From the NCBI RefSeq assembly GCF_003945235.1, contig NZ_RSDW01000001.1:4230001-4262000 (forward strand): a stretch of 32,000 nucleotides of DNA. The letters are read 5' to 3'. The DNA is from Edaphobacter aggregans (GTDB lineage Bacteria; Acidobacteriota; Terriglobia; Terriglobales; Acidobacteriaceae). Shown here piece by piece: positions 8,549-23,600 of the stretch. A program made the translations under genes and the position numbers. A model generated the notes under the pieces. The model was not told where the DNA came from, did not search any database, and was given only the letters and a program-made list of their open reading frames with translations. Within the stretch, counting starts at the first letter, position 1. Every line of letters starts with the position of its first letter.

Positions 8549-10477
8549 ATGAAAAAGACACGGTGTACAGCAGCGTTGGCGATGGTTGCCGTTATGTGCA
8601 CGGCGCCCGCGCACCCGCAACTCAACTTCTGTTTCGGTCCGACGATCGCGCGTAGCGTCCCCAACCCTGTCTTCGACGGCAACATCGACGGGGATAACGG
8701 CTGGCTAAATTCGTTCTTGTACCGTGGCGGAAACGGCGCACCGGACGCCGACATCATCCTGCAGGGGAACAGCTTTACAGACGGCGGCGGCCACCAGTGG
8801 CTCGCCCTCGGCGCCAGCGTGCTCAATGACACCGAGTGGGATGCGGGCGACTCCGTAGTTATCCTCTTCAAGTCCGGCAGCGGTTCCTACAACGAGATTG
8901 TGGTCTCCCCGCTTGAGAACGATGTCGCGCCCACCACCCCAATCGCAAACGGCAGGCCCGGGGCCTCGCAGTACTCCACGTCTTCGACCGGATCCCCGGG
9001 AACCTGGACACTTGTTGGCAATGCTCCGTCGTGGGTAACGTGGGGATCCGTTGGCACGGCGGGTGGCGGGGCGTGCACGGCGGCCCAGCCCGGCACCGCA
9101 TGCAAGTGGACGGTCGAACTCGGCATCGACACCACCGCTGCAGCCGCTGCCGGCGTCACCGGAATCATCAGTCTGAATCAGCTCTACGTTGATGTAGTCG
9201 CAATTTTTGACCGCAGCGGCCCGATGAGCTATCAGTCCTCCTGGCCGAATGGAAATACTTTGGTAGACGGGACCGATTTCACGATCACCCCAGCGGTCGC
9301 TAACTGGGGCGGCGCGTCGACCTCACCAAACGCTTGCAAAGGCGTCTCGGTCAGCTACGCCGACATCAGCGCCAGTCCGCTCGACGTTGGTGGAAATCTG
9401 CAGGCGGGTCTGAGCACAACCCTCACTGCGAAACTTCACAACAGCGGCGCCAACGCGAATGGCGTGATTGCTCACTTCAGCCATGCGCCGTTCGGCGTCT
9501 GTGGACTCGTGGACAGCTGTTTCACTGAGTTCGGCACCAGCAACACTCCCGTGAGCTGTCCGAATGGAGGCACCCCGCCATCATGCTGCACCGGAACTGC
9601 CGCATGCATTCCACCCGATATGAGCAACAATGCGGGCACGGCCCTGCAGGCGTCGTGGACGCCCACCAACGCTGACGATGGTCATCAGTGCATTCGAGTC
9701 AAGCTCGAAGCAACTCAGGCCGGCACCACGTTCGCCAGTTCGGGTGACTTTCATAACATGTGGGTCGACCATTCTTCCAATGTGGACGTGCACGCGCGTA
9801 TCGATATGACCAAGGTTCCGGCGCCTGAGGGCGGAGGCAATCAACGCGTCCGCCTCTACTCGTACCGGCAGACTCAGTACGCTTTCTCCGATGGAACCGC
9901 CCCAGGGGTCGCCGCAGCAACATTCACGGCGCAAATCATCACGCAATACCGCGGCTATCGCTACACCGGCAAGCACGTCACTGTCAACAGAGTGAAATCG
10001 GAAATCTGGGACCCCGTCGGCTCGTACGCCTATACCATTCAGCACGAAGTGGATCAGGCGTTCGAAACCGGATTCGAGCAACGCAACGCCACGGTTTTCG
10101 ATCGGTTCTGCGCGAACTATACTGCCGCACGAACGACCTCTGGAAGTGGTGACTGCATCACCACGCTTAAAGCTCGGATGAGAAAAGATCCGGCTTTGGT
10201 GCAACAGGTCAACACCGCGTTGGCGAGCTTGGCGGAGACGCCGAAGGTAACCGATTGGACCTTTGACTTGCAAGGCGTGAAGCATGTTGGCAACAACCCC
10301 GATCAGGTTGAGCTGGAGGTCCCGTTGAACAGTGCCGTCATGCTGCCAACCAAGATCAGCTACGTAGCGGGGAAAAAGCGGTGCTTCGACCTTGTGGGGG
10401 CCGGGGTTCCCGTCAGCGCCTTTGGTCTGACGATTCTGGGCCTTGGTGTTTACCTGCCCCGGAAAAGAAAGGAGTAG
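8549..10477 (+). CDS. Secreted/surface protein with signal peptide, CARDB-like and Cys-rich regions, and a C-terminal hydrophobic anchor plus basic tail
   Basis: GGAGG (8539-8543) lies 5 nt before ATG 8549; the track start at 8537 is less likely. The signal-peptide-like N-terminus is MKKTRCTAALAMVAVMCTAPAHPQ. VFDGNIDGDNGW resembles the start of CBM9-type domains. VSVSYADISASPLDVGGNLQAGLSTTLTAKLHNSGANANGVIAHF resembles CARDB. There is a Cys cluster, CGLVDSCF...SCPNGGTPPSCCTGTAAC. The C-terminus is GAGVPVSAFGLTILGLGVYLPRKRKE, a TM helix followed by a basic tail. Confidence 0.75.
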   Translation: MKKTRCTAALAMVAVMCTAPAHPQLNFCFGPTIARSVPNPVFDGNIDGDNGWLNSFLYRGGNGAPDADIILQGNSFTDGGGHQWLALGASVLNDTEWDAGDSVVILFKSGSGSYNEIVVSPLENDVAPTTPIANGRPGASQYSTSSTGSPGTWTLVGNAPSWVTWGSVGTAGGGACTAAQPGTACKWTVELGIDTTAAAAAGVTGIISLNQLYVDVVAIFDRSGPMSYQSSWPNGNTLVDGTDFTITPAVANWGGASTSPNACKGVSVSYADISASPLDVGGNLQAGLSTTLTAKLHNSGANANGVIAHFSHAPFGVCGLVDSCFTEFGTSNTPVSCPNGGTPPSCCTGTAACIPPDMSNNAGTALQASWTPTNADDGHQCIRVKLEATQAGTTFASSGDFHNMWVDHSSNVDVHARIDMTKVPAPEGGGNQRVRLYSYRQTQYAFSDGTAPGVAAATFTAQIITQYRGYRYTGKHVTVNRVKSEIWDPVGSYAYTIQHEVDQAFETGFEQRNATVFDRFCANYTAARTTSGSGDCITTLKARMRKDPALVQQVNTALASLAETPKVTDWTFDLQGVKHVGNNPDQVELEVPLNSAVMLPTKISYVAGKKRCFDLVGAGVPVSAFGLTILGLGVYLPRKRKE

Positions 10478-10479
10478 CA

Positions 10480-11322
10480 ATGTCGGCTGGAAATGAAGAA
10501 CTGTTCTTCCATGTGCCGCGGTCGCTCGCAGGCTTCGATCCTTCGATGGTTTGGGCGGCGGGGCTGCTTGCTGCGAGCGCTCATGCGGTCTTCTCGGCAT
10601 GGCGTGCGGGACTAAGTACACGCGCCATGTATCGGGCAGTCGTCTTGTCACTTCTGGGCGGCCTCTGGGGTGCGAATCTGCTTTCTTTACTGGTACACGG
10701 CTGGGAGGGCGGACCGCTGGCTGCCTTTGCGTTCGTGCAAGGCGGGAAGAGTCTGTTCGGAGGACTGCTGCTTGGTGGGTTTGCCGCGGTACTCTATTTC
10801 CACTATCGCAAGTTGCCCATGCTCGCCTACGCTGACGCGGGCATGCTGGCTCTTACGCTCGGTTACGCCATCGGTCGCATTGGATGTTTCCTGAATGGGG
10901 ATGACTACGGCACGTTAACCCACGTTCACTGGGCGGTTGTGTATCCACCGGGGACGGAGGCGTACGAAGCACATCTCGAGCGTGGCTGGATTTCTCCGGG
11001 AGATGCTTGGTCTCTGCCCATCCACCCAGTCCAACTCTATGCGTCCTTGCTGGGGCTAGCTCTCTTCGTCGTGCTCGTGGCCTGGCGTCCTAAGTGGGAG
11101 GGCAGTCGACTCTGCGCCTACCTGATTATTTACGGAGTTAGCCGATTTTTTTTGGAGTATCTCCGCGGCGACTTCCGAAGAGTGCTTGGAACTTTCTCTC
11201 TCCCGCAGCTCTTTAGCCTCTGCTTTATTTCCCTGGGTTTGGTCCTCTGGCTTCATCGAGGAAGGGTGCAAGCCACTGCAATTTCCAGCGCCCCCGTTCC
11301 GGATCAAGCGAGGTCTTGCTAA
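10480..11322 (+). CDS. lgt: Prolipoprotein diacylglyceryl transferase (Lgt) family protein, probable paralog embedded in the eCIS locus
   Basis: ATG 10480 lies 5 nt after AAAGGAG (10468-10474), which sits inside the end of the upstream gene. The track start at 10381 would overlap that gene by about 100 nt. Lgt-family motifs are present: GGKSLFGGLLLGG (the GG-M-S-x-H-GG region), GRIGCFLNGDDYG, HPVQLYASLL and YGVSRFFLEYLRGD. The protein is multi-pass hydrophobic and about 280 aa, the normal Lgt size. Confidence 0.8.
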   Translation: MSAGNEELFFHVPRSLAGFDPSMVWAAGLLAASAHAVFSAWRAGLSTRAMYRAVVLSLLGGLWGANLLSLLVHGWEGGPLAAFAFVQGGKSLFGGLLLGGFAAVLYFHYRKLPMLAYADAGMLALTLGYAIGRIGCFLNGDDYGTLTHVHWAVVYPPGTEAYEAHLERGWISPGDAWSLPIHPVQLYASLLGLALFVVLVAWRPKWEGSRLCAYLIIYGVSRFFLEYLRGDFRRVLGTFSLPQLFSLCFISLGLVLWLHRGRVQATAISSAPVPDQARSC

Positions 11323-13444: not shown

Positions 13445-15559
13445 TTGGACCGGGAACTCAATCCCTTTTCTGACGTTCCGTGTACCGCACGAGGGCACTT
13501 AGGTCTCCTTTTTTATGAGGCCGCCTGTCGCGTGATCTTCTATCTGCAGCACCGTTCCCAACTTTCCGGCAACTCTCCGAAACAAGTGTTCGAAACCTTC
13601 CCTTTCCTGTCTTCTTACTGGGAAGAACTGCAGCACCGTTTTCCGGAAATAGAGCAAACTGAACAATTCCTGAATATCCTTCGCACCGAGTGTGACCGAT
13701 GGGAGGAGTCCTGCCAGGAATGGCTTCCGCTGCGCGCCGTTCGCCAACAGGCGTCGCTCGGCGCGGAAGCCGTAGCCTGCCTCGTGCTGGCAGGGCTGAC
13801 AGAACAAGACGCGCGCTTCGGTGAATTGTTCAGTGTCCTGCAGCAGCCGCTGGTACAGCGCCGTCCGACGCTTGGCCTTTTGCAACAGCTGATGCAAATG
13901 GAGCAGGGTCCCTCGGACGCTTGGAACCTTTGCCTGCCGCTTCTCGACCAGGGATTGTTGGTCGCCACCAATCGGGATACACCCAGAGCCGAATGGGCAG
14001 TTCGGGTTCCGTCTGCAGTCTGGAGCGCCCTGCGCGGAGAGTACGCCAAAGAGCCCATTCCTGGAACGAAATATCATCCGTCCGGCGATTTTGCCCCCAT
14101 TCGCGAGCTCATACTTGCTCCCGAACAGCGTGCGCAGCTTTCTGAACTGGTCTTGCTCTTAAGCTCGAATCGAACTCGCGCGGTAGTGGTTCGAGGATTG
14201 GCCGGCAGCCCACGCATCGAAATTTTGGGCAGTATATCCCGCGAAATGGGGCGCGGGCTGTTTGAGGTGGATGGGCCGCTGCTTGCCGACGAAGAGCGTC
14301 GCCGCCTGATTGGCCCCATAGCGATCTTGATCAACTGTATCCCGGCGCTCAGTTTTGAACTCGGGACCGGAGAATCCGTCGATATTCCTCCGCTCGGCGG
14401 CTACGCCGGACCGATCGGGCTTTCCCTCGGTTCCGAGGGTGGATTGGCAGGCCCGTTAATGGATCGTTCGGTCACAGTGCATCTCCAACCGGAGACGCCT
14501 GAGCAGCGCCTTCGCTATTGGCAGCGCGAACTCAAAGACCACTCTGCCGAAGATCTGCACCCGATTGCAAAAGGCTTCACCTTGAGCGGAGGCCATATCC
14601 GGAAAGCAGCAAGAGTAGCCGCCACCCACGCGGCGCTCGACGGCCGCTTAAAAATTAATTCGACGGACGTGCGTCAAGCCACCCGCAACCTTGGCCAGAG
14701 ACTTGAGTTTTTGGCCGCTAGATTGGAGGATGGTGGTGACTGGGCACACTTGGTCGTTCCAGCTTCGACGGAACGCGCCTTACACGATCTCCAGACGCGC
14801 TGCCGTCATCGCGAGCAGCTCGCAACCCTGCTGAGCCGCCAGCTACCAGGTGGACTCAACCGGGGAGTGCGTGCCCTCTTTGAAGGGCCCAGCGGCACAG
14901 GTAAAACTCTTGCCGCAAGGATCCTTGCCTCCGAGCTCGGCCTTGATCTTTATCGCGTGGACCTGGCTGCGTTAATGAACAAATACATCGGGGAGACGGA
15001 GAAGAATCTTAGCCGGGTGCTCAGCCGAGCGGAGGACCTTGACGTAATTCTGCTGCTCGACGAAGGTGACTCGCTGATGAGCCGCCGCACCGACGTCAAG
15101 ACAGCGAACGACCGTTACGCAAACCTGGAAACCAACTACTTGCTGCAGCGCCTCGAAACCTACGTGGGAATCGTCCTCGTAACTACCAATATCGGCGGCG
15201 CGATCGACAGCGCATTTCGGCGGCGCATTGATGCGATTGTCAGATTCCATCTCCCGCAGGCGGAAGAGCGCTGGCGCTTGTGGCAGCTCCATCTCCCACC
15301 GCGACATGCCGTCCAGCCCGACGAGTTGGAGACGATTGCGCTGCGATATGAGATGACAGGCGCCCAGATACGCAATGCCTCCGTGCAGGCGGCCCTGTCG
15401 GCAATGCAGGGTTCGCGCGGAGCGATCAAGGTGGCCGATTTAAGAAACGCGATTCAGTCCGAGTATCGCAAGGCCGGCGCCGCCGTGCCCGTCGAAGAAA
15501 TCAGAAGCGCGGAGTGTCAGGAACACCGCCTCTCAGGTTTTCTTTCCGTAATTTCCTGA
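13445..15559 (+). CDS. AAA+ ATPase, eCIS Afp15/Cis15-like (long N-terminal domain plus one classic AAA module)
   Basis: Walker A is GPSGTGKT (about 14884-14907) and Walker B is ILLLDEGD (about 15046-15069). The surrounding sequence LAARILASELGLDLYRVDLAALMNKYIGETEKNLSRVLSRAE and the sensor/Arg-finger region VTTNIGGAIDSAFRRRID are typical of the classic AAA clade. The start is apparently TTG at 13445, with no in-frame ATG nearby. The N-terminal ~470 aa domain resembles those of eCIS ATPases. Confidence 0.9.
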   Translation: MDRELNPFSDVPCTARGHLGLLFYEAACRVIFYLQHRSQLSGNSPKQVFETFPFLSSYWEELQHRFPEIEQTEQFLNILRTECDRWEESCQEWLPLRAVRQQASLGAEAVACLVLAGLTEQDARFGELFSVLQQPLVQRRPTLGLLQQLMQMEQGPSDAWNLCLPLLDQGLLVATNRDTPRAEWAVRVPSAVWSALRGEYAKEPIPGTKYHPSGDFAPIRELILAPEQRAQLSELVLLLSSNRTRAVVVRGLAGSPRIEILGSISREMGRGLFEVDGPLLADEERRRLIGPIAILINCIPALSFELGTGESVDIPPLGGYAGPIGLSLGSEGGLAGPLMDRSVTVHLQPETPEQRLRYWQRELKDHSAEDLHPIAKGFTLSGGHIRKAARVAATHAALDGRLKINSTDVRQATRNLGQRLEFLAARLEDGGDWAHLVVPASTERALHDLQTRCRHREQLATLLSRQLPGGLNRGVRALFEGPSGTGKTLAARILASELGLDLYRVDLAALMNKYIGETEKNLSRVLSRAEDLDVILLLDEGDSLMSRRTDVKTANDRYANLETNYLLQRLETYVGIVLVTTNIGGAIDSAFRRRIDAIVRFHLPQAEERWRLWQLHLPPRHAVQPDELETIALRYEMTGAQIRNASVQAALSAMQGSRGAIKVADLRNAIQSEYRKAGAAVPVEEIRSAECQEHRLSGFLSVIS

Positions 15560-15588
15560 TAACTCTGGCGCCCGCAAGGTCCAAGAAC

Positions 15589-18500
15589 ATGGCTGACGTA
15601 CAAAGGGTTCATAAGACGCGCGACAGGTCACAGGCTGCTAGGTCTGGGGGCCAGGAACCGCCTGCGCCGGCCGCAGCCCCCGCTGCACCAGCGTGGCTTG
15701 CGGCGCCTACGGCTGCGCCGTTCTCGATCGGCGGAGTGCAACGCAAGGTTGCTATTGGCGCGAGCAACGATGCCTACGAACGCCAGGCAGATCAGGTTGC
15801 AAACCGGGTGGCAAGTGGTGGCCGTATAGCGCCCGGTTCTATTTCCAGCATCGCGCCAGGCGCGCTTGGCCAGCGCCAATCCAAAGACGAGAAGAAAAAA
15901 GGGCCGGCATCCGCTCCGCCAGTACAGCGGGAAGTCAAGCCTGAAGATAAAACCAAAGACGCAAGAGCAGCAATGCCGGTGCAGAAGCAGGCAAAGCCTG
16001 ACGATAAGCAAGATAAGAAAGCAGCGCCAGTACAGAGGGAGACGAAGGCGAAAGACAGAAAGCAAGACAGCGACGCAAAAGCACCGGCCGTCCAGCGCGC
16101 CGGGAAGGACGATAAGGAAAAGCGGGAAGAAAAAAAGCTTGAGGACAAGCTACCTCCAGCGGTGCAGCGTAAGGTGCGCCCTGAAGATAAGAAGAAGATA
16201 GAAAGAGACTGGTCGGCTCCTTTGCAGATGAAGTCCAAGCCCGAGGAAAAGGACAAGACCGCGCCCCTATCTCCAGTACAGAGAGAATCGAAATCAAAAG
16301 AAGATGAGAAGAACGATTTATCCGCTGCTGCTCCTATCCAGCGCGCGGACAAGCCTGAAGAGAAAAAGAAAGACGAGAAACCCGCGGCTCCTGCACCGCT
16401 TCAGAAACAAGCGAAGCCCGAGCAGAAGAATAACAAGAAGGAGGATTCGCCAGGGGCTGCACCTGTTCAACGTGCCGAAACCAACCAGGTCCCCAGGCAT
16501 GAGGAGAAGCCCGTCCAGACCAGCCGAGGAGGAGGAGGCGCCACGGCAGCCCCTTCGATGGAAAGCGCCGCTTCGCACGCCATCGCCAGCAAAGGGCCAG
16601 GTGTACCAATCAACTCAGGAACCCGGGGGACGCTGGAGTCCGGAATGGAAACTGACCTCAGCGATGTACGTGTCCACAGCGATACGCGAGCGCACGAGGC
16701 CTCAGAGGCGCTGAATGCTCGCGCCTTTACGCATCAGAATGACATCTGGCTAGGCCGCGGCGAATCCCAGTCCGACACGCGGTTGATGGCGCACGAAGCC
16801 GCGCACGTCGTGCAGCAAACGGGCAGCGTGCACCGGCAGTTGGTGCAAAGGGACGACAAACCGGCAGCTGCCGGCTCCAAAAACACGGGGGAAACCACTG
16901 CGGCGCCGGCATCGGGTTGGGACTACGAAGGAAAAGAGGGCAAGGTCCAGAAGGACAAGAAGCTTGTCTTGCCTCTCTTGCGAGTTCCTGATTTCAAGAA
17001 GCCGCCAATAACGCCTTCTTCTCTCACTCTGCCGCAAAAGACAGATGAGCCTCGCCCGGATACTCAACGAACGATCTGGGAAAAGGATGTCAAGGCAGGA
17101 AGCGCAATTGACACAAAGCTCAACAAGAAGATTGCGGATGAGAAGGCCCCCAGTCTGCAAAAGAATGGTGAACCCAACTATTTCCTTCAACTCAAGGGTC
17201 AGGATATTTACCTGATCGGCTCGAAAGATACATTGAAGCAAGGTCTTCTGCGGCCTTATTGGGAGCCTTCAGGAAGGCCCAACTCGTTTCAGGTGGACCA
17301 CAAACAAGAACTTCAATTAGGGGGCACCAATTCCATAGAGAACATGTGGCTCCTAGACGCGGACGCGAACATGAGTTCCGGCCGCAACATTAAGGCGGAG
17401 CGGGACTCTCGAATTCAAACGCTGCTCAATGCTGCCATCAAGAAGGGGGTTTGGAAAGAGCCGCCAGACGTAGAAGCCGTGCGTCGCGGCTACACGATCG
17501 AAGTGGAAAAAGTCATGGGCGGTCTGGATGTTGGAGGCAAGCCCGATAGCCGATGGACCAGGGAAGCAATCAAAGACGCTGCCTTGCAACTTGACGGCCT
17601 GAAATGCCTCACAAAAGACCAAATCAATAAAAAGGGCCTGCAGGGCACGGCAAGTCGGATCGTTATTTACACCAATCCGGCAGGCGGCGGAGTGCGATAC
17701 AGCGAGGGATGGCAGGACGGTCAGACTGAAAGAAAACAAGACTTTCACTTCGGCAAAATGTTTCAGATTACGAAAGTTAACTACGACCGAAACAGCAAGC
17801 AGGGCTCAGTGGAAGGGAACGTATTCCGGGGTAGCCACTTTTTCCAAGAGGTCAAATTGCCCCCTATTCCTTTGCAGGAAATGGACGTTGTCGACTACGG
17901 GGGTTTCATTTCGGTGTCCGCACTTACGCGAACGATTCAGCACGAGCTGAAACTAAAGGGTCTCAGTGCTGTGCAAATCGATGAAGCTCAGCTGACCGAC
18001 AGAGGATTGGTCGCCCGCGGCAAAGTGCAGCCCAGCATCCGGCCTTTTGACAAAGTCAGCCTCGATCTCATCATCGATGGCGACAATATTTATCTCAGCA
18101 AGGTTTTTAGTGCCGACGACTTCAATTTTCCCGGTCCCATTAAAGCGACCAGCGCAAGTCTCGAAATATTTGCGGGCACTCAGGGAGTCGGCGTTAGGGG
18201 CGACGTCCACATTGAAATTGAGCGGTTAGGCAAAGGCAAGATTACAGCTGGAGTGTCGACCAGCGAAGGGCCAAAAATCGAAGGAGACTTCGAATTTGAC
18301 ACCGATCTCTTCGACCCTGCAAAAGTTCACGTCGAGTACTTTCAAGGGAGATTCAGCGGTGGAGGCAAGATCGGCGTCAAGCCGGGCAAAGTACGCGGCA
18401 TCAAGTCTGCAAGTATTGACGCTTCTTTCACAGAAGACGTTATCGATGCTAAGGGCTCGATCATGCCTGACATTCCGGCCGTGGAACAGGCCGACCTTGC

Positions 18501-19620
18501 CATGCACTATGACGAGAAGTCCGGACTGACCATTGCCGGCGACCTGCAACTAAAGAAAGACATTCCTGGACTTGCTGATGGCTCCATTCACGCCGAAGTA
18601 AATAAAAAAGACGATAAGTACCTTGTAAAGGCGCACGGCGAGGCCACACCTAAGATCCCCGGCATTACTTCCAAGCTGATGGTGACCTACGACGATGGCG
18701 CCTTCGACGCCATCGTTATTGCGGGCTACGAAAAAGGAATGCTCAAAGGCTCGGTCATCGCGGGTGCGACGAACCGTCCGGTGGATGACAGCGGCAAACC
18801 CGGGGAAGTATCGCCCGCCAAAGCCGACAAGATCACACTGTACGGCGGCGGTTCGGTCACGCTCCAACTGGCGCCTTGGTTACAAGCCACAGCGGTTATC
18901 AAGTTCAAGCCTGACGGCGACGTTCAGGTCACCGGCAAGATCGGCCTGCCCAGCGTTCTCGACATCTTCGATGAAAAGAGGATCGACAAAAATATTTTCA
19001 AGATCGGCATTTATATCCCCATTGTGCCCGGTGTTGCCTTAAACGTCGGCGGTGGAGTTGACTTGAGCGCGGGTATCGGACCGGGACAATTGCAGGAGGT
19101 GGAGGTAGACGTCACTTACGATCCTGCGAAAGAAGATGAGACCAATGTGCACGGCCACGCTGCGCTGCATATACCCGCCCATGCTGGGTTGCGCATGAAT
19201 GTGCACGCGGCGCTCGACGTCGGTGTCCCCCTTGCCGACGTCGAAGGGGGAATTGAACTGGGTGGAACGCTGGGGATTGCAGGCGCGCTCCACGCTGGAG
19301 TTGACATTGATTGGACGCCGAAGAAAGGTCTCGTCCTGGACGCAAGCGCCGAAATTTATGGCGAGCCCAAGTTCAGATTCGACATAACCGGTTATGTCAA
19401 AGTGGAAGTTGGCGTCGGGCCTCTTTCGGAAACGCTCTGGGAAAAAAGGTGGGAGCTGGCTGCCATTGAATATGGCTCTGGCCTGCGCCTGGGACTTAAG
19501 TTGCCGGTTCATTACCAAGAAGGTAAGCCCTTCAACGTTTCACTTAGCGACATACAATTTGAAGTTCCGAATGTGGATCCAATGAGCGTCCTCAAGGGAC
19601 TTATCGACCAGATTACGTAA
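15589..19620 (+). CDS. DUF4157 (eCIS-associated HExxH domain) protein, putative eCIS cargo/toxin: charged repeat N-terminus, DUF4157, HNH-like motif, Gly-rich beta-type C-terminal domain
   Basis: ATG 15589 (MADVQRV...) is preferred over the track start at 15514, which overlaps the ATPase gene by 46 nt. The DUF4157 signature is LESGMETDLSDVRVHSDTRAHEASEALNARAFTHQNDIWLGRGESQSDTRLMAHEAAHVVQQ (about 16600-16830; HEAAH at 16792-16806). The gene lies directly after the AAA+ ATPase, where eCIS loci usually encode payloads. Confidence 0.9.
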   Translation: MADVQRVHKTRDRSQAARSGGQEPPAPAAAPAAPAWLAAPTAAPFSIGGVQRKVAIGASNDAYERQADQVANRVASGGRIAPGSISSIAPGALGQRQSKDEKKKGPASAPPVQREVKPEDKTKDARAAMPVQKQAKPDDKQDKKAAPVQRETKAKDRKQDSDAKAPAVQRAGKDDKEKREEKKLEDKLPPAVQRKVRPEDKKKIERDWSAPLQMKSKPEEKDKTAPLSPVQRESKSKEDEKNDLSAAAPIQRADKPEEKKKDEKPAAPAPLQKQAKPEQKNNKKEDSPGAAPVQRAETNQVPRHEEKPVQTSRGGGGATAAPSMESAASHAIASKGPGVPINSGTRGTLESGMETDLSDVRVHSDTRAHEASEALNARAFTHQNDIWLGRGESQSDTRLMAHEAAHVVQQTGSVHRQLVQRDDKPAAAGSKNTGETTAAPASGWDYEGKEGKVQKDKKLVLPLLRVPDFKKPPITPSSLTLPQKTDEPRPDTQRTIWEKDVKAGSAIDTKLNKKIADEKAPSLQKNGEPNYFLQLKGQDIYLIGSKDTLKQGLLRPYWEPSGRPNSFQVDHKQELQLGGTNSIENMWLLDADANMSSGRNIKAERDSRIQTLLNAAIKKGVWKEPPDVEAVRRGYTIEVEKVMGGLDVGGKPDSRWTREAIKDAALQLDGLKCLTKDQINKKGLQGTASRIVIYTNPAGGGVRYSEGWQDGQTERKQDFHFGKMFQITKVNYDRNSKQGSVEGNVFRGSHFFQEVKLPPIPLQEMDVVDYGGFISVSALTRTIQHELKLKGLSAVQIDEAQLTDRGLVARGKVQPSIRPFDKVSLDLIIDGDNIYLSKVFSADDFNFPGPIKATSASLEIFAGTQGVGVRGDVHIEIERLGKGKITAGVSTSEGPKIEGDFEFDTDLFDPAKVHVEYFQGRFSGGGKIGVKPGKVRGIKSASIDASFTEDVIDAKGSIMPDIPAVEQADLAMHYDEKSGLTIAGDLQLKKDIPGLADGSIHAEVNKKDDKYLVKAHGEATPKIPGITSKLMVTYDDGAFDAIVIAGYEKGMLKGSVIAGATNRPVDDSGKPGEVSPAKADKITLYGGGSVTLQLAPWLQATAVIKFKPDGDVQVTGKIGLPSVLDIFDEKRIDKNIFKIGIYIPIVPGVALNVGGGVDLSAGIGPGQLQEVEVDVTYDPAKEDETNVHGHAALHIPAHAGLRMNVHAALDVGVPLADVEGGIELGGTLGIAGALHAGVDIDWTPKKGLVLDASAEIYGEPKFRFDITGYVKVEVGVGPLSETLWEKRWELAAIEYGSGLRLGLKLPVHYQEGKPFNVSLSDIQFEVPNVDPMSVLKGLIDQIT
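15870..16525 (+). repeat. In-frame degenerate tandem repeat: about 10 units of [P/A]-[V/L/I]-Q-[R/K/M] followed by a Lys/Glu/Asp-rich spacer (16-24 aa per unit)
   Basis: The units, read directly from the translation, are: PVQREVKPEDKTKD, PVQKQAKPDDKQDKK, PVQRETKAKDRKQDSDAK, AVQRAGKDDKEKREEKK, AVQRKVRPEDKKKIERD, PLQMKSKPEEKDKT, PVQRESKSKEDEKND, PIQRADKPEEKKKDEK, PLQKQAKPEQKNNKKED, PVQRAETNQVPRHEEK and PVQTS. Isolated VQR motifs also occur at about 15598, about 15739 and about 16843. The DNA here is strongly purine-rich on the coding strand. Confidence 0.75.
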
Positions 19621-19640: not shown

Positions 19641-20693
19641 ATGCAAGACGATACAACGTTTTCTCTCACCGGCGCGAGCCGGCTGAACGGCAGCGGTGGC
19701 GTGAACGGCCAGAAGTTCGGCTCGCGCGACGCTAACGATCGAGGCGCGCGGCGACACCTCGAGGGCGATGTGGAAGGAGCAAAAGCTGAATACCTGTCGG
19801 CACTCGAACTGGATTCCGGCAACGCGACTGCGCATAACAATCTCGGTTTCCTGCTGTCCCAGGAAGGTCAATTAGACAAGGCCATCGCCCATTACCAGCT
19901 AGCCCTCGAAATTGACCCGCAGAAGAGCATGGCCATGGCCAACATGGGGCTCGTAGAGGGCGCTCAGGGCAATGATAAGGCCGCTGTGGAATGGCTTCGC
20001 CGCGCGGTAGGGGCCAACACTGGCAACGTTCTTGCCTGGGATAATCTAAGCCGATTGCTGCTGAAAATGGGCCGGCTTACCGAGGCCGAAGCCGCGGCGC
20101 GAACTGCCCTGGAGGCCGCACCCCATGAGGGGCGCTTTTACCTCACCTTGGGACTGGCCGTCGCCGGGCAGCAGCGCCTGACGGAAGCGGTCGAGATATT
20201 CAAACGCACTGTCCACCTTGATCCTAATTCAGCAAATAGCTGGGAACAATTGGGCGTAGTGCTCTGGCTCCGGCAGGATCTGGGTTCTGCAGCCGACGCT
20301 CTTCGGCGCGCCGTTACGCTCGACTCGCAAAGCGTCTCGGCTCGCTATCATCTGGCCCTGGTTCTGTTGACCAGGGGCGAGCACGAAGCCGCGGTCAAGG
20401 AGCTGGAATCTGTTCTGGCCATCGAACCGGGTCATGCCGCCGCGCAACTAGATCTGGCGGTACTTTCAGTCTCGCAGGGCGATGCCGCGGGGGCTCTCGA
20501 CAGACTGGAAGTAATCCTGCACAGTGACCCGGAGAATCCGCGGGCCCTTTTTTACCGCGCGGTCGCACTTGATCAGTCGCAGCGAACTAGCGAAGCCACG
20601 GAGCTCCTGCAGGCACTGGCTGACGCCGGCAAAGGCAAGTATTCGCAGCGAGCGCACGTCTATCTGGAAGAAAGGAGCGGGAGACACTCCTAG
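19641..20693 (+). CDS. Tetratricopeptide (TPR) repeat protein
   Basis: GGAGG (19630-19634) lies 6 nt before the ATG. About eight consecutive 34-aa TPR units are visible, for example AEYLSALELDSGNATAHNNLGFLLSQEGQLDKAIAHYQLALEIDPQKSMAMANMGLV and ...FKRTVHLDPNSANSWEQLGVVLW. The gene starts 20 nt after the DUF4157 gene and ends 6 nt before the next gene. Confidence 0.9.
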   Translation: MQDDTTFSLTGASRLNGSGGVNGQKFGSRDANDRGARRHLEGDVEGAKAEYLSALELDSGNATAHNNLGFLLSQEGQLDKAIAHYQLALEIDPQKSMAMANMGLVEGAQGNDKAAVEWLRRAVGANTGNVLAWDNLSRLLLKMGRLTEAEAAARTALEAAPHEGRFYLTLGLAVAGQQRLTEAVEIFKRTVHLDPNSANSWEQLGVVLWLRQDLGSAADALRRAVTLDSQSVSARYHLALVLLTRGEHEAAVKELESVLAIEPGHAAAQLDLAVLSVSQGDAAGALDRLEVILHSDPENPRALFYRAVALDQSQRTSEATELLQALADAGKGKYSQRAHVYLEERSGRHS

Positions 20694-20699
20694 TGATCC

Positions 20700-23600
20700 A
20701 TGAATGCTGCCATCGCCCAGCCCGATCCTATCGTCCTGCCGCAGGTCGCCGAGTCACGCGCGTTGCCGCACGAGCTCAAGGATTTCCGCGGCCATCACGC
20801 CGGCGAAACCATCCTCGTCTGCGGCTGTGGATCGTCGTTGTCGGATATTGTCTCTCCGGACCGCTTCATTACTATCGGGGTCAACGATGTGGGCCGGCTA
20901 TTCCAACCGGATTACCTGGTTGTCTTGAATCCCAGGCAGCAGTTCCACAACGACCGTTTTCAATTCGTTGAGCAGAGTCGCGCCCGCGCCATCTTCACAC
21001 AACTGAATTTGGGCATCCTTCATCCTCACATCGTCCGCTTTCGATTGGGAAAATTCGGTGGCGTAGATTTCTCCGACCATTCTTGCCTGCACTACACCCG
21101 AAATTCTCCGTACCTGGCCATGTGCCTAGCGATTCACATGGGTGCCACGAGGATCGGACTGATCGGGGTGGATTTCAATGCCGATCATTTCTTCGCAAAA
21201 ACAGGCCAGCATCCGCTCACCCGTCAGCTTCCGCAAATCGATCAGGAGTATAAGCGTCTCTATGATGCCTGCAACAGGCAAGGGATAGAAGTCGTCAACC
21301 TAAGTGCCAACAGCCGTCTCACAGCACTCCCCAAAATGTCACCCGAAGAGTTCGCATCGCGTGGGCAATCGAAGAAGTCTCTGAATGTGGTTTCCTATTC
21401 CACTACACCTGTAGCAGGCGTGCCTGCCATCTTGGCCAGGTGTATCGCATCCCGCACTGCGCACACCTGCCGCACAGTGTGGGCAACAAAAAGCTATTCC
21501 AACGGTGTGGCTTTTGACGGAGATGTTGAGTGGCAGCGGTTACCCGAGGTCGCCGAAACGCTCTTGCGATCTGCCGATTTGGTGATTGTCCACAATGGAA
21601 AAGTAGATGAGCGCCACCGGGCATTCCTTCGCAACAAGCCGATTATCACCATGGCCCACAATTACATCTCGAACATCGACCAGGCATTCTTGCAGCAAGG
21701 ATTTCCCGGTGTAGTCGTCGGCCAGTACCAGGCCGCTCTGCCCGAGTTTAAGGGGTGGCACGTGGTCCCCAATCCCGTACCGTTGTGGGAGACCGCGTTT
21801 CAGCCCATCGCTAAACAGCTGCCCATCACGATTTGTTACACCCCTTCCGGGAAGCACGATACCTATCCAAGAAATCATCGGCTTTACTGGCACTCCAAGG
21901 GTCATAGTTCAACCATACGAGTGTTAGAGAGCCTCGCACGGCGCTATGAAGTGCAACTTGAAGTCATCCGCGGCAGTCAAGTATCCCATGCCGAATCGCT
22001 CGCCATGAAGCGTCGCGCCCACATCGTGATCGATGAATGCGTTACTGGCAGCTATCATCGAAATAGCTTGGAAGGGTTAGCCCTCGGTTGCGTGGTCGTG
22101 AATGGAGTAGGCAGCGTGCCGTCGATCGCAGATCTGCTCACTCACTGCGCTGGTGGGGCCGTGGAGATTCCGTTTGTGCAGGCCGGCCTTGATGATTTGG
22201 AACGAGTGTTGACCATCCTGATAGAACGTGGCGCCGCGGCGCTTGTCGCGCAGGGAGAGCGCAATCGCAGATGGATGGAAGAGCGATGGGACTTTCGACA
22301 GCAATGGACACGTTTCTGGGAACCTGCGGTCGATCAGGCAACTCGGCCGCGACGGCATAGTGCTGCCAGCGTTCACCTCGCTCATAGCGCCCCCCTTAGA
22401 GGAGAAAAAGGCGTGAGCCACCAAATAGCGGCGACTGTACTAGCAGAGGGATTAAGCGTGGTTGTTTGTCAGGGCGGAAAGGAGCGTTTGCCTCAACTCG
22501 GAGCATCACTGGCCAATCTTCGGCAATGCGAGGGTGTGAGCGAAATCATCGTGGCAGAGATGGGCTGCGCCCCTGTCGCCGAGGAACTGGCTCGTCGCTG
22601 GGCAGACAAGTACGCGTTTGTGAAAGCCGATGATGCTTTCGAACGGGCACGCGCTTTAAACATAGGTACTTCCCTGGCAGAGTACGACCTGGTCCTTTGG
22701 ATGGACAACGACCTGATCATGTCCCCGGACTTCATTAGCAAAGCAGTCAAAGAGATGCGTGCAAACGGGTTGGACTATTTGATCCCTTACGCTCGATTAG
22801 ACTGCTTGTCGGCATCCGATAGTAAGGCCGTGATGCAAGGAGTTTGTAACCCCGCGGATTGTGCCGTCGCTGGCGTGTATCTACCGCTCCGCCCCGCTTA
22901 TGGAGGGGCGGGAATCGTCAAACGATCTTTCATTCTCGAATACGGAGGAATCTCAGAAGACTTTCGAGGTTGGGGTGGGGAAGACGATGCCTGGTGGCAT
23001 AAAGCCAGCCTTCTCGGACGGGCCGACGTGACTCAGCAGCGAAATCAATCCCTTCATCATCTGTTCCACCTAAACTCCGGCTCTTACACAAAGCAGAAGG
23101 AGAGCAATCCACACTACTCCCGAAACGTGGCTGCGCTTAAGGAGATCTCTTCCGTTCGCGACCGCGAGACTTTCCTTAAGCGCTTTCAGCCGCCGCGGGT
23201 CTCATGGAGCTGGGAGAATAAATCCATAGCGTTCGTCAGCCGCCATATTGGTTCGGACTCTTTGCCCAGTGCTGTGGCGCATCACCTGTCGAAATTGGTC
23301 TTAGGCCAGGTTCTTCCGCAAGTCCTGACCGATAACGATGTTGCCTCTAAGGACTGGTTTGCAAAGAATTCGCCCGATGCCCTGGTCCTCTGCGGTCTGG
23401 AGTCGGCTATACCCGTCTTAGCCGATGAGGCGCAGAGTGCGATATGGAGAAAAACGATTGTTATTCATACTGGAGGAGACCTGACGGTTGATGTTGCACA
23501 ACCGCTGCAACGAGCGGGAGCGATCGTCTGCCTGAGTGGTGCGGATGCGACACAACTCCGAAAGGCGGGGCTGCGGCCATGGACTTGTGGCCGGTCCGCC

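Follow-up and report, generated by a model that had tools for sequence, protein, structure and literature searches.

A regularly repeated Φ-Q-[R/K] motif in the predicted disordered N-terminal region of a DUF4157 protein from an Edaphobacter aggregans injection-system locus

The stretch analyzed here, 32,000 nucleotides of the Edaphobacter aggregans genome (contig NZ_RSDW01000001.1, positions 4,230,001 to 4,262,000; hereafter the window), contains an extracellular contractile injection system (eCIS) locus in which one gene encodes a 1343-residue DUF4157 protein. This protein consists of a predicted disordered N-terminal region, a DUF4157 domain, and a large C-terminal region, and its N-terminal region carries an array of ten units of about 20 residues, each opening with the short motif [P/A]-[V/L/I]-Q-[R/K/M]. 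The core of the motif, Φ-Q-[R/K] (Φ = V/L/I/M), recurs in orthologs between unrelated spacers and is enriched across the DUF4157 family. We tentatively read the array as a set of multivalent short linear motifs in a cargo-loading region, which the loading ATPase or the tube of the injection device would recognize, and assign this reading a probability of roughly 0.45.

The motif array and its conservation in orthologs

Matches to [VLI]Q[RKM] begin at residues 112, 131, 148, 168, 192, 212, 230, 250, 271, and 293 (first base of Φ in the ten copies, nt 15922-16465), and a degenerate eleventh copy, PVQT, follows at residues 308-311. The original prediction, made from the letters and open reading frames (ORFs) of the window, had described about ten tandem units at 15870-16525 recurring every 16-24 residues. 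Ten copies are present, and their measured spacing is 17-24 residues (mean 20.1, standard deviation 2.1), which is far from random, since equal regularity arose in 1 of 200,000 random placements. Q is invariant in all ten copies, the residue before Φ is P in eight and A in two, and the V/L/I, R/K/M, and P/A positions are conservative classes. The units also share the consensus A-A-P-V-Q-R-x-x-K-P-E-[D/E]-K-K-K, in which position +5 is K in 8/10 copies and position +6 is P in 6/10. Thus, the earlier description of a strictly conserved tetrapeptide between free spacers is too strong: it holds for the Q alone, while the other positions vary within classes and the spacers share a KPE[D/E]K submotif.

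The number of copies is far above what composition predicts. In 100,000 composition shuffles of residues 101-310, P[VLI]Q[RKM] occurred 0.05 times on average (maximum 3) against 8 observed, and [VLI]Q[RK] occurred 0.41 times on average against 9 observed; no shuffle reached either observed count. The whole protein contains 14 copies, compared with 0-2 in each of the other 14 genes of the window. At the DNA level, Tandem Repeats Finder detected no period of about 60 nt (nt 15400-17200), returning just two micro-repeats of 19-24 nt, and the codons of the motif vary by copy (GTA, GTG, GTC, and GTT for V; CGG, AGG, CGC, CGT, and AGA for R). A recent DNA amplification in this gene was rejected on both grounds. 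The repeat is therefore old and has been kept at the protein level.

The array region (residues 101-310) is a polyampholyte in which 47% of residues are charged, 12% are P, and 13% are A. In an AlphaFold2 (AF2) model built from an 84-sequence alignment, residues 100-320 have pLDDT values (predicted local distance difference test) of 40-47, and the region is therefore predicted to be disordered, as expected of a linear motif. No Pfam family matches residues 1-339 at E <= 10, the NCBIfam scan of the whole protein covers no part of the N-terminal region, a PDB sequence search gave no match at E <= 1, and Foldseek returned noise only (E > 3) for the modeled N-terminal region plus DUF4157. A literature search on the tetrapeptides, and on DUF4157 with repeats or disorder, found no description of the motif or the repeats.

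Homologs keep the motif. About 90 full-length orthologs with a conserved C-terminal region were found in Acidobacteriota, Dormibacteraeota, Gemmatimonadota, Proteobacteria, and Actinomycetota (where the source names the organism), and a second search seeded from Bacteroidota added Bacteroidota, Planctomycetota, KSB1, Bipolaricaulota, and Cyanobacteria. Most orthologs contain 4-14 [VLIM]Q[RK] copies in the N-terminal region, where about 0.4 are expected, compared with 0-3 in the C-terminal parts of about 910 residues. The array period is 20-21 residues in most lineages and 11, 12-13, 15-18, or 25-35 residues elsewhere; the ortholog sample is phylogenetically uneven, and the 20-residue mode of its spacing histogram partly reflects one clade. 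A match between a minimum spacing of 11-12 residues and the ~40 Å rise of the tube rings was considered and rejected, since spacings of 8-9 residues occur. Spacers are unrelated between lineages (PVQKQAKPDEKKKDEKPAAA, PVQKKEEEKKEP, PVQRAAKxDEK, PLQRQEEExxxxAQTA, and SPLIQRQ...EEEEE), with types that include KPEEKKK, EEEKKEP, AAKxDEK, and QEEExxxxAQTA, and the net charge of 88 arrays runs from -0.27 to +0.11 per residue around a constant Φ-Q-[R/K] core. Because period, spacers, and charge vary while the core stays, it is the motif that is conserved, and not charge or length. In ortholog alignment A1, identity is 94% at Q against 39% in the spacers among close orthologs, and 72% against 21% among distant ones, figures that are inflated because an automatic aligner, given repeats, is prone to place Q over Q.

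The core itself drifts in some lineages, contrary to a strict conservation of the tetrapeptide. Some proteobacterial orthologs, at first seemingly without arrays, carry [P/A]-[A/V]-Q-[T/A]-K (10 observed in P0076 against 1.0 expected), a Methylomonas ortholog has A-R-L-Φ-R-K repeats instead of Φ-Q-R, and Bacteroidota orthologs have Φ-Q-[E/K/Q] within acidic repeats. With a core conserved in orthologs, a disordered region, and poorly conserved flanks, the array has the properties of a short-linear-motif array. Sequence comparison indicates that the motif is under selection at the protein level, because codons differ between copies and conservation at Q far exceeds that of the spacers. The proposal of a selected recognition, cleavage, or docking motif, beyond plain low complexity, is thus borne out by retention in homologs, by the non-random spacing, and by the shuffle statistics.

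A simpler view would hold that the region is mere disordered, charged filler, such as an entropic chain that fills the lumen or prevents folding of the cargo, in which the core came along from the founding unit as a passenger and has no dedicated reader. The extreme composition of the region fits this view, as do the range of 4-14 copies among orthologs and a literature that describes disorder alone, without conservation. In some lineages, moreover, the units are nearly identical (e.g., in P0010 and P0039), and recent amplification must therefore have occurred there. We nevertheless consider filler improbable: independent arrays with unrelated spacers, different periods, and opposite net charge have the same core, synonymous codons vary between copies, Q is far better conserved than the spacers, and the core is enriched as single copies in diverse DUF4157 proteins without arrays.

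The motif around the DUF4157 domain

A query with the DUF4157 domain only returned 46,293 representative clusters. In the N-terminal regions of 130 diverse DUF4157 proteins among the top hits, each scored against its own composition, the two most over-represented tripeptides were IQR (103 against 3.8 expected) and VQR (121 against 6.2 expected), and QRK, PVQ, and LQR ranked within the top eight. Between 41 and 50% of the Q residues in N-terminal regions follow V, I, L, or M, compared with a background of 10-16%. Furthermore, [VLIM]Q[RK] occurs within 32 residues past the HExxHxxQ signature in 122 of 256 DUF4157 domains (48%; shuffles 5.6%), and 106 of these 122 motifs (87%) lie 12-19 residues past the first H. 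The motif therefore characterizes the DUF4157 family in general, and in the tandem array it has been expanded within the loop that separates a conserved helix (..IGxxxDxYExEAD..) from the domain core. Many proteins of 2000-4700 residues carry two to six DUF4157 domains (P0122-P0130 and others), and in some of these, such as P0152, a cluster of several Φ-Q-R-K copies directly follows each domain.

In the Edaphobacter protein, the single copies predicted at MADVQRV, GGVQRK, and QLVQRDD were found at residues 4, 50, and 419 (Table 1). The first depends on the choice of start codon. A database protein from Edaphobacter aggregans (P0001, 1294 residues) is 100% identical and annotated from V50, a start that drops 49 conserved N-terminal residues, including the M-x-E-x-Q-R peptide (window 15589-15735). 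The sequence favors the ATG at 15589 as the better start, since it lies 30 nt past the stop codon of the upstream ATPase gene and the first 49 residues are kept in orthologs as M-x-[E/D]-x-Q-R-Φ-x-K-x-R ... P-F-x-L-G-G-V-Q-R-K. Additionally, the ortholog of locus L001, annotated from the same internal position, has this peptide in frame upstream, and ortholog P0010, which is shortened likewise, has MGETQRLKRS encoded in its upstream frame. Among 58 orthologs, 30 have Q[RK] within their first 10 residues and 26 have Q at residue 5, compared with 3.6% in shuffles.

The second copy precedes a conserved element on the N-terminal side of the array. Residues Q51, G57, D61, E64, A67, A71, and V74 are at least 90% conserved in alignment A1, EAD occurs in 89 of the 130 diverse N-terminal regions, and residues 61-90 are modeled with pLDDT 87-98. 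The element IGxxxDxYERxADxVAxxV (residues 58-85, window 15760-15843), whose helix reaches pLDDT 95-98, is excluded from the Pfam DUF4157 model. That this helix is modeled with confidence despite about 240 disordered residues between it and the DUF4157 core suggests that it packs onto the core, and the near-invariant E64 might serve as a zinc ligand or as a switch. The third copy lies in the linker between DUF4157 and the C-terminal region, which has pLDDT 31-46 in a model of residues 300-1343. Two further matches, VQK453 and LQK523, are probably due to chance.

DUF4157 is the sole Pfam match of the protein (76.4 bits against a gathering cut-off of 22), and its core is modeled with pLDDT 93-98. 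HEAAH at residues 402-406 (nt 16792-16806) is followed by VVQQ, so the HExxHxxQ zinc-binding signature is present (HEAAHVVQQ, residues 402-410). H402, E403, H406, and Q409 are invariant in 84 aligned sequences, HExxH and the following Q are invariant in a second alignment of 65, and a search for orthologs with a degenerate HExxH, as natural loss-of-site experiments, found none. Peptidase or autoprocessing activity of DUF4157 is a prediction in the literature.

Possible cargo loading or self-cleavage

DUF4157 is the PVC-metallopeptidase, for which an autoproteolytic role as a releasing peptidase in polymorphic toxins has been predicted (Zhang et al., 2012, PMC3482391). Later work identified this domain of unknown function as a core marker both of eCIS loci and of the associated toxins. 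In AlgoCIS, the eCIS of Algoriphagus machipongonensis, the tube lumen is occupied by the two DUF4157 proteins of the system, Cgo1 and Cgo2 (Xu et al., 2022, PMC8894135). AlgoCIS cargo without its N-terminal region is not loaded, cargo without DUF4157 is loaded, and particles without the ATPase Alg15 are empty (bioRxiv 10.64898/2026.05.27.728243). In Streptomyces, the reported partners of DUF4157 proteins are the spike complex or the tube initiator, and one DUF4157 protein binds the tube initiator. These points on loading and binding come from other systems, whereas the motif, its regularity and selection, its occurrence across the family, the predicted disorder, and the eCIS context come from the present analysis; that the motif is what is read in the N-terminal region, and by which component, is our proposal.

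The protein studied here is probably the cargo of a phage-tail-like injection device. Its order of a disordered N-terminal region (pLDDT 40-47), DUF4157 (93-98), and an ordered C-terminal region (mean 82.8) is that of a cargo protein, and its place in an eCIS locus beside an AAA+ ATPase, in the same order in loci L001-L004, is that of a Cgo-type lumen cargo. Both of the functions that the original prediction offered as examples, tube-lumen packaging and autoprocessing by the adjacent HExxH domain, fit this context, since the DUF4157 protein directly follows the eCIS ATPase; packaging fits because the equivalent disordered region of AlgoCIS cargo is needed for tube-lumen loading.

Under the loading reading, each polyampholyte unit would display one [P/A]-Φ-Q-[R/K] core, and the cores would serve as contact points by which the machinery recognizes, grips, or retains a cargo that is fed unfolded into the inner-tube lumen. 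The reader would be the adjacent upstream AAA+ ATPase, the tube-fold proteins (tube initiator and tube rings), or both. Copy number would provide avidity, and the charged spacers would merely keep the chain extended and soluble. Several observations lead us to favor loading at the probability given above. First, about half of the orthologs keep Q-[R/K] at the position of residues 4-6, which is fitting for a terminal recognition signal but hardly sensible for a protease cut. Second, AlgoCIS loading requires the N-terminal region and not DUF4157. Third, the motif drifts by lineage, as would fit the co-evolving, system-specific receptor that the AlgoCIS authors hypothesize for the loading sequence (bioRxiv 10.64898/2026.05.27.728243). 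Finally, the core is independent of charge and spacing.

The main rival explanation is that the motifs are cut sites of the DUF4157 zinc metallopeptidase of the same chain, cleaved as [P/A]↓Φ-Q-[R/K] with a hydrophobic P1' residue. Cleavage at LVQR419 would free the C-terminal effector, and cleavage within the array would shred or detach the spent loading region. The invariance of HExxH and the following Q in both alignments means that an active site is maintained and needs a substrate, and 48% of DUF4157 domains carry the motif soon after the signature, where 5.6% are expected. The post-domain copy, in a disordered linker ahead of the C-terminal region, is ideally placed for a release site, and another copy lies just ahead of the conserved helix on the N-terminal side, so that copies flank the domain on both sides. 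Preference for a hydrophobic P1' residue is common among zincins, and Φ would suit such an enzyme. The autoproteolysis predicted by Zhang et al. (2012, PMC3482391) points the same way; that peptidase is the same HExxHxxQ domain as here, likewise N-terminal to a variable or large C-terminal module in PVC-type loci, although no cleavage site was named there, and the flanking and repeated Φ-Q-R copies are candidate sites.

Other evidence speaks against self-cleavage, which we consider rather unlikely. Cutting at the conserved copy at residues 4-6 would free a mere tripeptide. AF2 docks no copy onto the domain, and both flanking copies fall in low-confidence segments, so that intramolecular docking of a motif copy in the peptidase cleft was set aside as unsupported by the models. 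In AlgoCIS, Cgo1 toxicity is independent of HExxH motifs and cargo is still loaded without DUF4157. Furthermore, the peptidase core is highly conserved across lineages between which the motif itself drifts, and the literature searched reports no processed forms. Cleavage and loading can both be true.

Several points weigh against loading as the function of the array. The motif flanks DUF4157 on both sides, and motif-dense ORFs in 16 loci nearly all carry DUF4157, the exception being a 554-residue ORF of locus L010 with four copies; a domain in cis with flanking copies would suit a functional tie to the peptidase no less well. In PVC, cargo is loaded in the absence of DUF4157, by means of unrelated N-terminal signals. 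The inflation of the Q-versus-spacer identities noted above lessens their weight, and the proposed reader components (ATPase, tube, and tube initiator) are candidates. Finally, the equivalence to Cgo2 is drawn from layout, size, C-terminal orthologs in the same bacterial family, and the TPR neighbor, and not from direct sequence similarity.

The likeness to AlgoCIS covers several features. Cgo1 and Cgo2 have the same layout of a disordered N-terminal region, DUF4157, and a C-terminal region, Cgo2 (ALPR1_12690) is similar in size (1228 residues, compared with 1343 here), and the AlgoCIS locus contains the same trio of cargo, AAA+ ATPase, and TPR protein (~34-38 kDa). Orthologs of the C-terminal region occur in the Cyclobacteriaceae, the family of Algoriphagus; those in Cyclobacterium/Cyclobacteriaceae are 34-37% identical and have the TPR neighbor, and in a homolog search seeded with a Cyclobacterium ortholog no match is named Algoriphagus machipongonensis. 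The differences lie in the loading region. The AlgoCIS papers report disorder without a motif or repeat, and the loading sequence is described there as "not conserved" save for its disorder (bioRxiv 10.64898/2026.05.27.728243). Orthologs from Bacteroidota, the phylum of AlgoCIS, carry acidic Φ-Q-[E/K/Q] repeats, compared with the K/E/P-rich P-Φ-Q-R units found here. Two or three tandem DUF4157 cargo genes occur in Bacteroidota and cyanobacterial loci (L010, 5852-16130; L016, 6898-12946; L015, 2744-13156), each set with one small product (455-637 residues) and one or two large ones (1328-1679 residues), all with motif-rich N-terminal regions. These small and large genes mirror the Cgo1/Cgo2 pair.

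Two other classes of loading signal provide comparisons. In the Photorhabdus virulence cassette (PVC) and the antifeeding prophage (Afp), disordered, hydrophilic N-terminal signal peptides (those of Photorhabdus Pnf, Pdp1, and Cif, read by Pvc15) and a cognate AAA+ ATPase likewise guide lumen loading. PVC cargo differs in lacking DUF4157, and its signals of about 50 residues fall into several barely related groups for which no periodic motif has been described. In type VI secretion, the short N-terminal signatures MIX, FIX, and RIX mark cargo of a contractile machine irrespective of the toxin domain. Each of these signatures is one structured or semi-structured motif or domain and belongs to a different machine, unlike the periodic disordered array described here.

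The surrounding locus and significance

Genes with Baseplate_J and Tail_P2_I domains (Pfam) lie upstream of the ATPase and cargo genes, and the tube and tube initiator of the locus are encoded still farther upstream, outside the window. The features discussed are collected in Table 1.

Table 1. Coordinates of the DUF4157 cargo gene, its motif copies and domains, and its immediate neighbors in the window.
Feature	Position	Strand	Basis or remark
AAA+ ATPase (Afp15/Pvc15/Alg15 type), directly upstream of the cargo gene	13445..15559	+	Pfam AAA, E 3.8e-22
DUF4157 (eCIS_core) protein gene, 1343 aa	15589..19620	+	ORF list; starts MADVQRV
N-terminal copy VQR (aa 4-6), within M-x-[E/D]-x-Q-R-Φ-x-K-x-R	15598..15606	+	Conservation in orthologs
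G-VQRK copy (aa 49-53), then VAIGxxxDxYERxADxVAxxV, predicted helix aa 62-75	15733..15843	+	Alignment A1, AF2
Degenerate copy GQR (aa 94-96), just ahead of the array	15868..15876	+	Q95 at least 90% conserved in A1
Array of ten ~20-aa units, each opening [P/A]-[V/L/I]-Q-[R/K/M] (aa 111-295), plus degenerate PVQT	15919..16521	+	
DUF4157 / PVC-metallopeptidase core (aa 340-412)	16606..16824	+	Pfam PF13699, E 1.9e-21
LVQR copy past the domain (aa 418-421), in the disordered linker that joins DUF4157 to the C-terminal region	16840..16851	+	R421 at least 90% conserved
C-terminal region, ~900 aa: α/β part, then ~550 aa all β	16912..19617	+	Orthologs in several phyla, AF2
TPR protein, directly downstream; conserved partner gene	19641..20693	+	Pfam TPR

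The upstream AAA+ ATPase, whose gene is syntenic with the cargo gene in loci L001-L004, is a candidate loader and motif reader. It has 704 residues, and its AAA domain is confined to residues 478-602. The N-terminal ~470 residues match no family and are a candidate cargo-recognition domain. Alignment of this part is confined to the ATPases of related loci and does not extend to the shorter proteins of Bacteroidota (~260 residues aligned; Alg15 is 50 kDa).

The C-terminal region carries no annotation in the libraries searched and is confidently modeled (mean pLDDT 82.8 for the model of residues 300-1343). It contains an invariant HNH-like motif, D570-H571...E574...N585...N594 (residues 570-595, window 17296-17373), and a weak Pfam HNH match (E 0.042). 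Its last ~550 residues form long β-hairpins, and Foldseek finds a weak likeness to the large barrels LptD and VDAC (template-modeling score 0.13-0.3). The region could combine a nuclease with a membrane-inserting or barrel-like module.

The TPR gene lies immediately 3' of the cargo gene in all nine orthologous loci inspected with tblastn (L001-L009), Cyclobacteriaceae among them. Its product of about 350 residues occurs in Acidobacteriota, Gammaproteobacteria, and Bacteroidota across these loci and has a sub-threshold likeness to the type III secretion TPR chaperones LcrH/SycD and SctY. It is probably the counterpart of the 34-kDa "TPR Protein" of AlgoCIS, which is listed with the 134-kDa Cgo2 and the ATPase in the mass-spectrometry table and is absent from the particles (bioRxiv 10.64898/2026.05.27.728243).

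The motifs could instead dock this TPR protein, which, as a chaperone in the cytoplasm, would keep hold of the disordered N-terminal region and then pass it to the ATPase. Binding of short extended peptides is a general property of TPR domains and would suit such docking, as would the constant position of the gene across three phyla, the type III chaperone matches, and the absence of the AlgoCIS protein from finished particles, as expected of a chaperone. However, the TPR gene tracks the C-terminal family for any motif variant, even where Φ-Q-R copies are scarce or absent (L003, L005, and L007), and may therefore serve the C-terminal region, while arrays also occur in DUF4157 proteins with other C-terminal regions. 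Docking to the TPR protein thus appears quite improbable, and the TPR gene was rejected as an array-specific partner because it accompanies the C-terminal family whatever the motif variant.

After the TPR gene, a fusion gene (20700-26735) encodes 2011 residues with GT2, methyltransferase, Caps_synth, Gly_transf_sug, and Glyco_transf_7C domains, and split versions of these domains follow the TPR gene in L001, L002, and L004. The fusion protein might belong to the injection system, for example as a modifier of particles or cargo. On this basis the Q, R, or K of the motif might be a site of glycosylation or methylation by the enzyme two genes downstream: glycosyltransferase and methyltransferase genes come after the TPR gene both here and in these three loci, all array-bearing, and are absent from the Methylomonas locus, which itself lacks Φ-Q-R arrays. 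The comparison is of four loci with one, all four belong to the same clade, and plain synteny is a simpler explanation, so this co-occurrence was set aside as an argument. In addition, the GT2, Caps_synth, and Gly_transf_sug set is typical of polysaccharide synthesis, and tblastn shows no such genes at Bacteroidota and other array-bearing loci. We regard modification of the motif as a very remote prospect.

Elsewhere in the eCIS gene row is a homolog of Lgt (prolipoprotein diacylglyceryl transferase; 10381-11322), which is unusual for such a locus and shares about 97 nt with the end of the preceding 646-residue ORF.

Loading regions at the N terminus of eCIS cargo were already known, and what is new here is the conserved motif array within one. 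For the DUF4157 cargo class, the array may be the first signal for loading or processing to be defined by its sequence. Engineering of eCIS particles into programmable devices for protein delivery is under way, and cargo choice and loading are the main open mechanistic question. In a bolder form of the loading reading, which we hold to be doubtful, Φ-Q-[R/K] would be a portable loading code of DUF4157 cargo across phyla: copies would dock the tube or initiator ring or an ATPase subunit, copy number and spacing would set the cargo's share of the lumen, and DUF4157 would cut the same sites after delivery, releasing the effector. If true, such a code would overturn the view of the loading sequence as unconserved disorder and provide a minimal designable tag for engineered injection systems. 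The conserved core in itself offers a residue-level hypothesis and suggests a minimal synthetic loading tag. It could also sharpen the prediction of cargo genes in genomes, which currently uses composition-based scores. For the DUF4157 family, Φ-Q-[R/K] would be the first candidate substrate for a long-unexplained invariant HExxH site.

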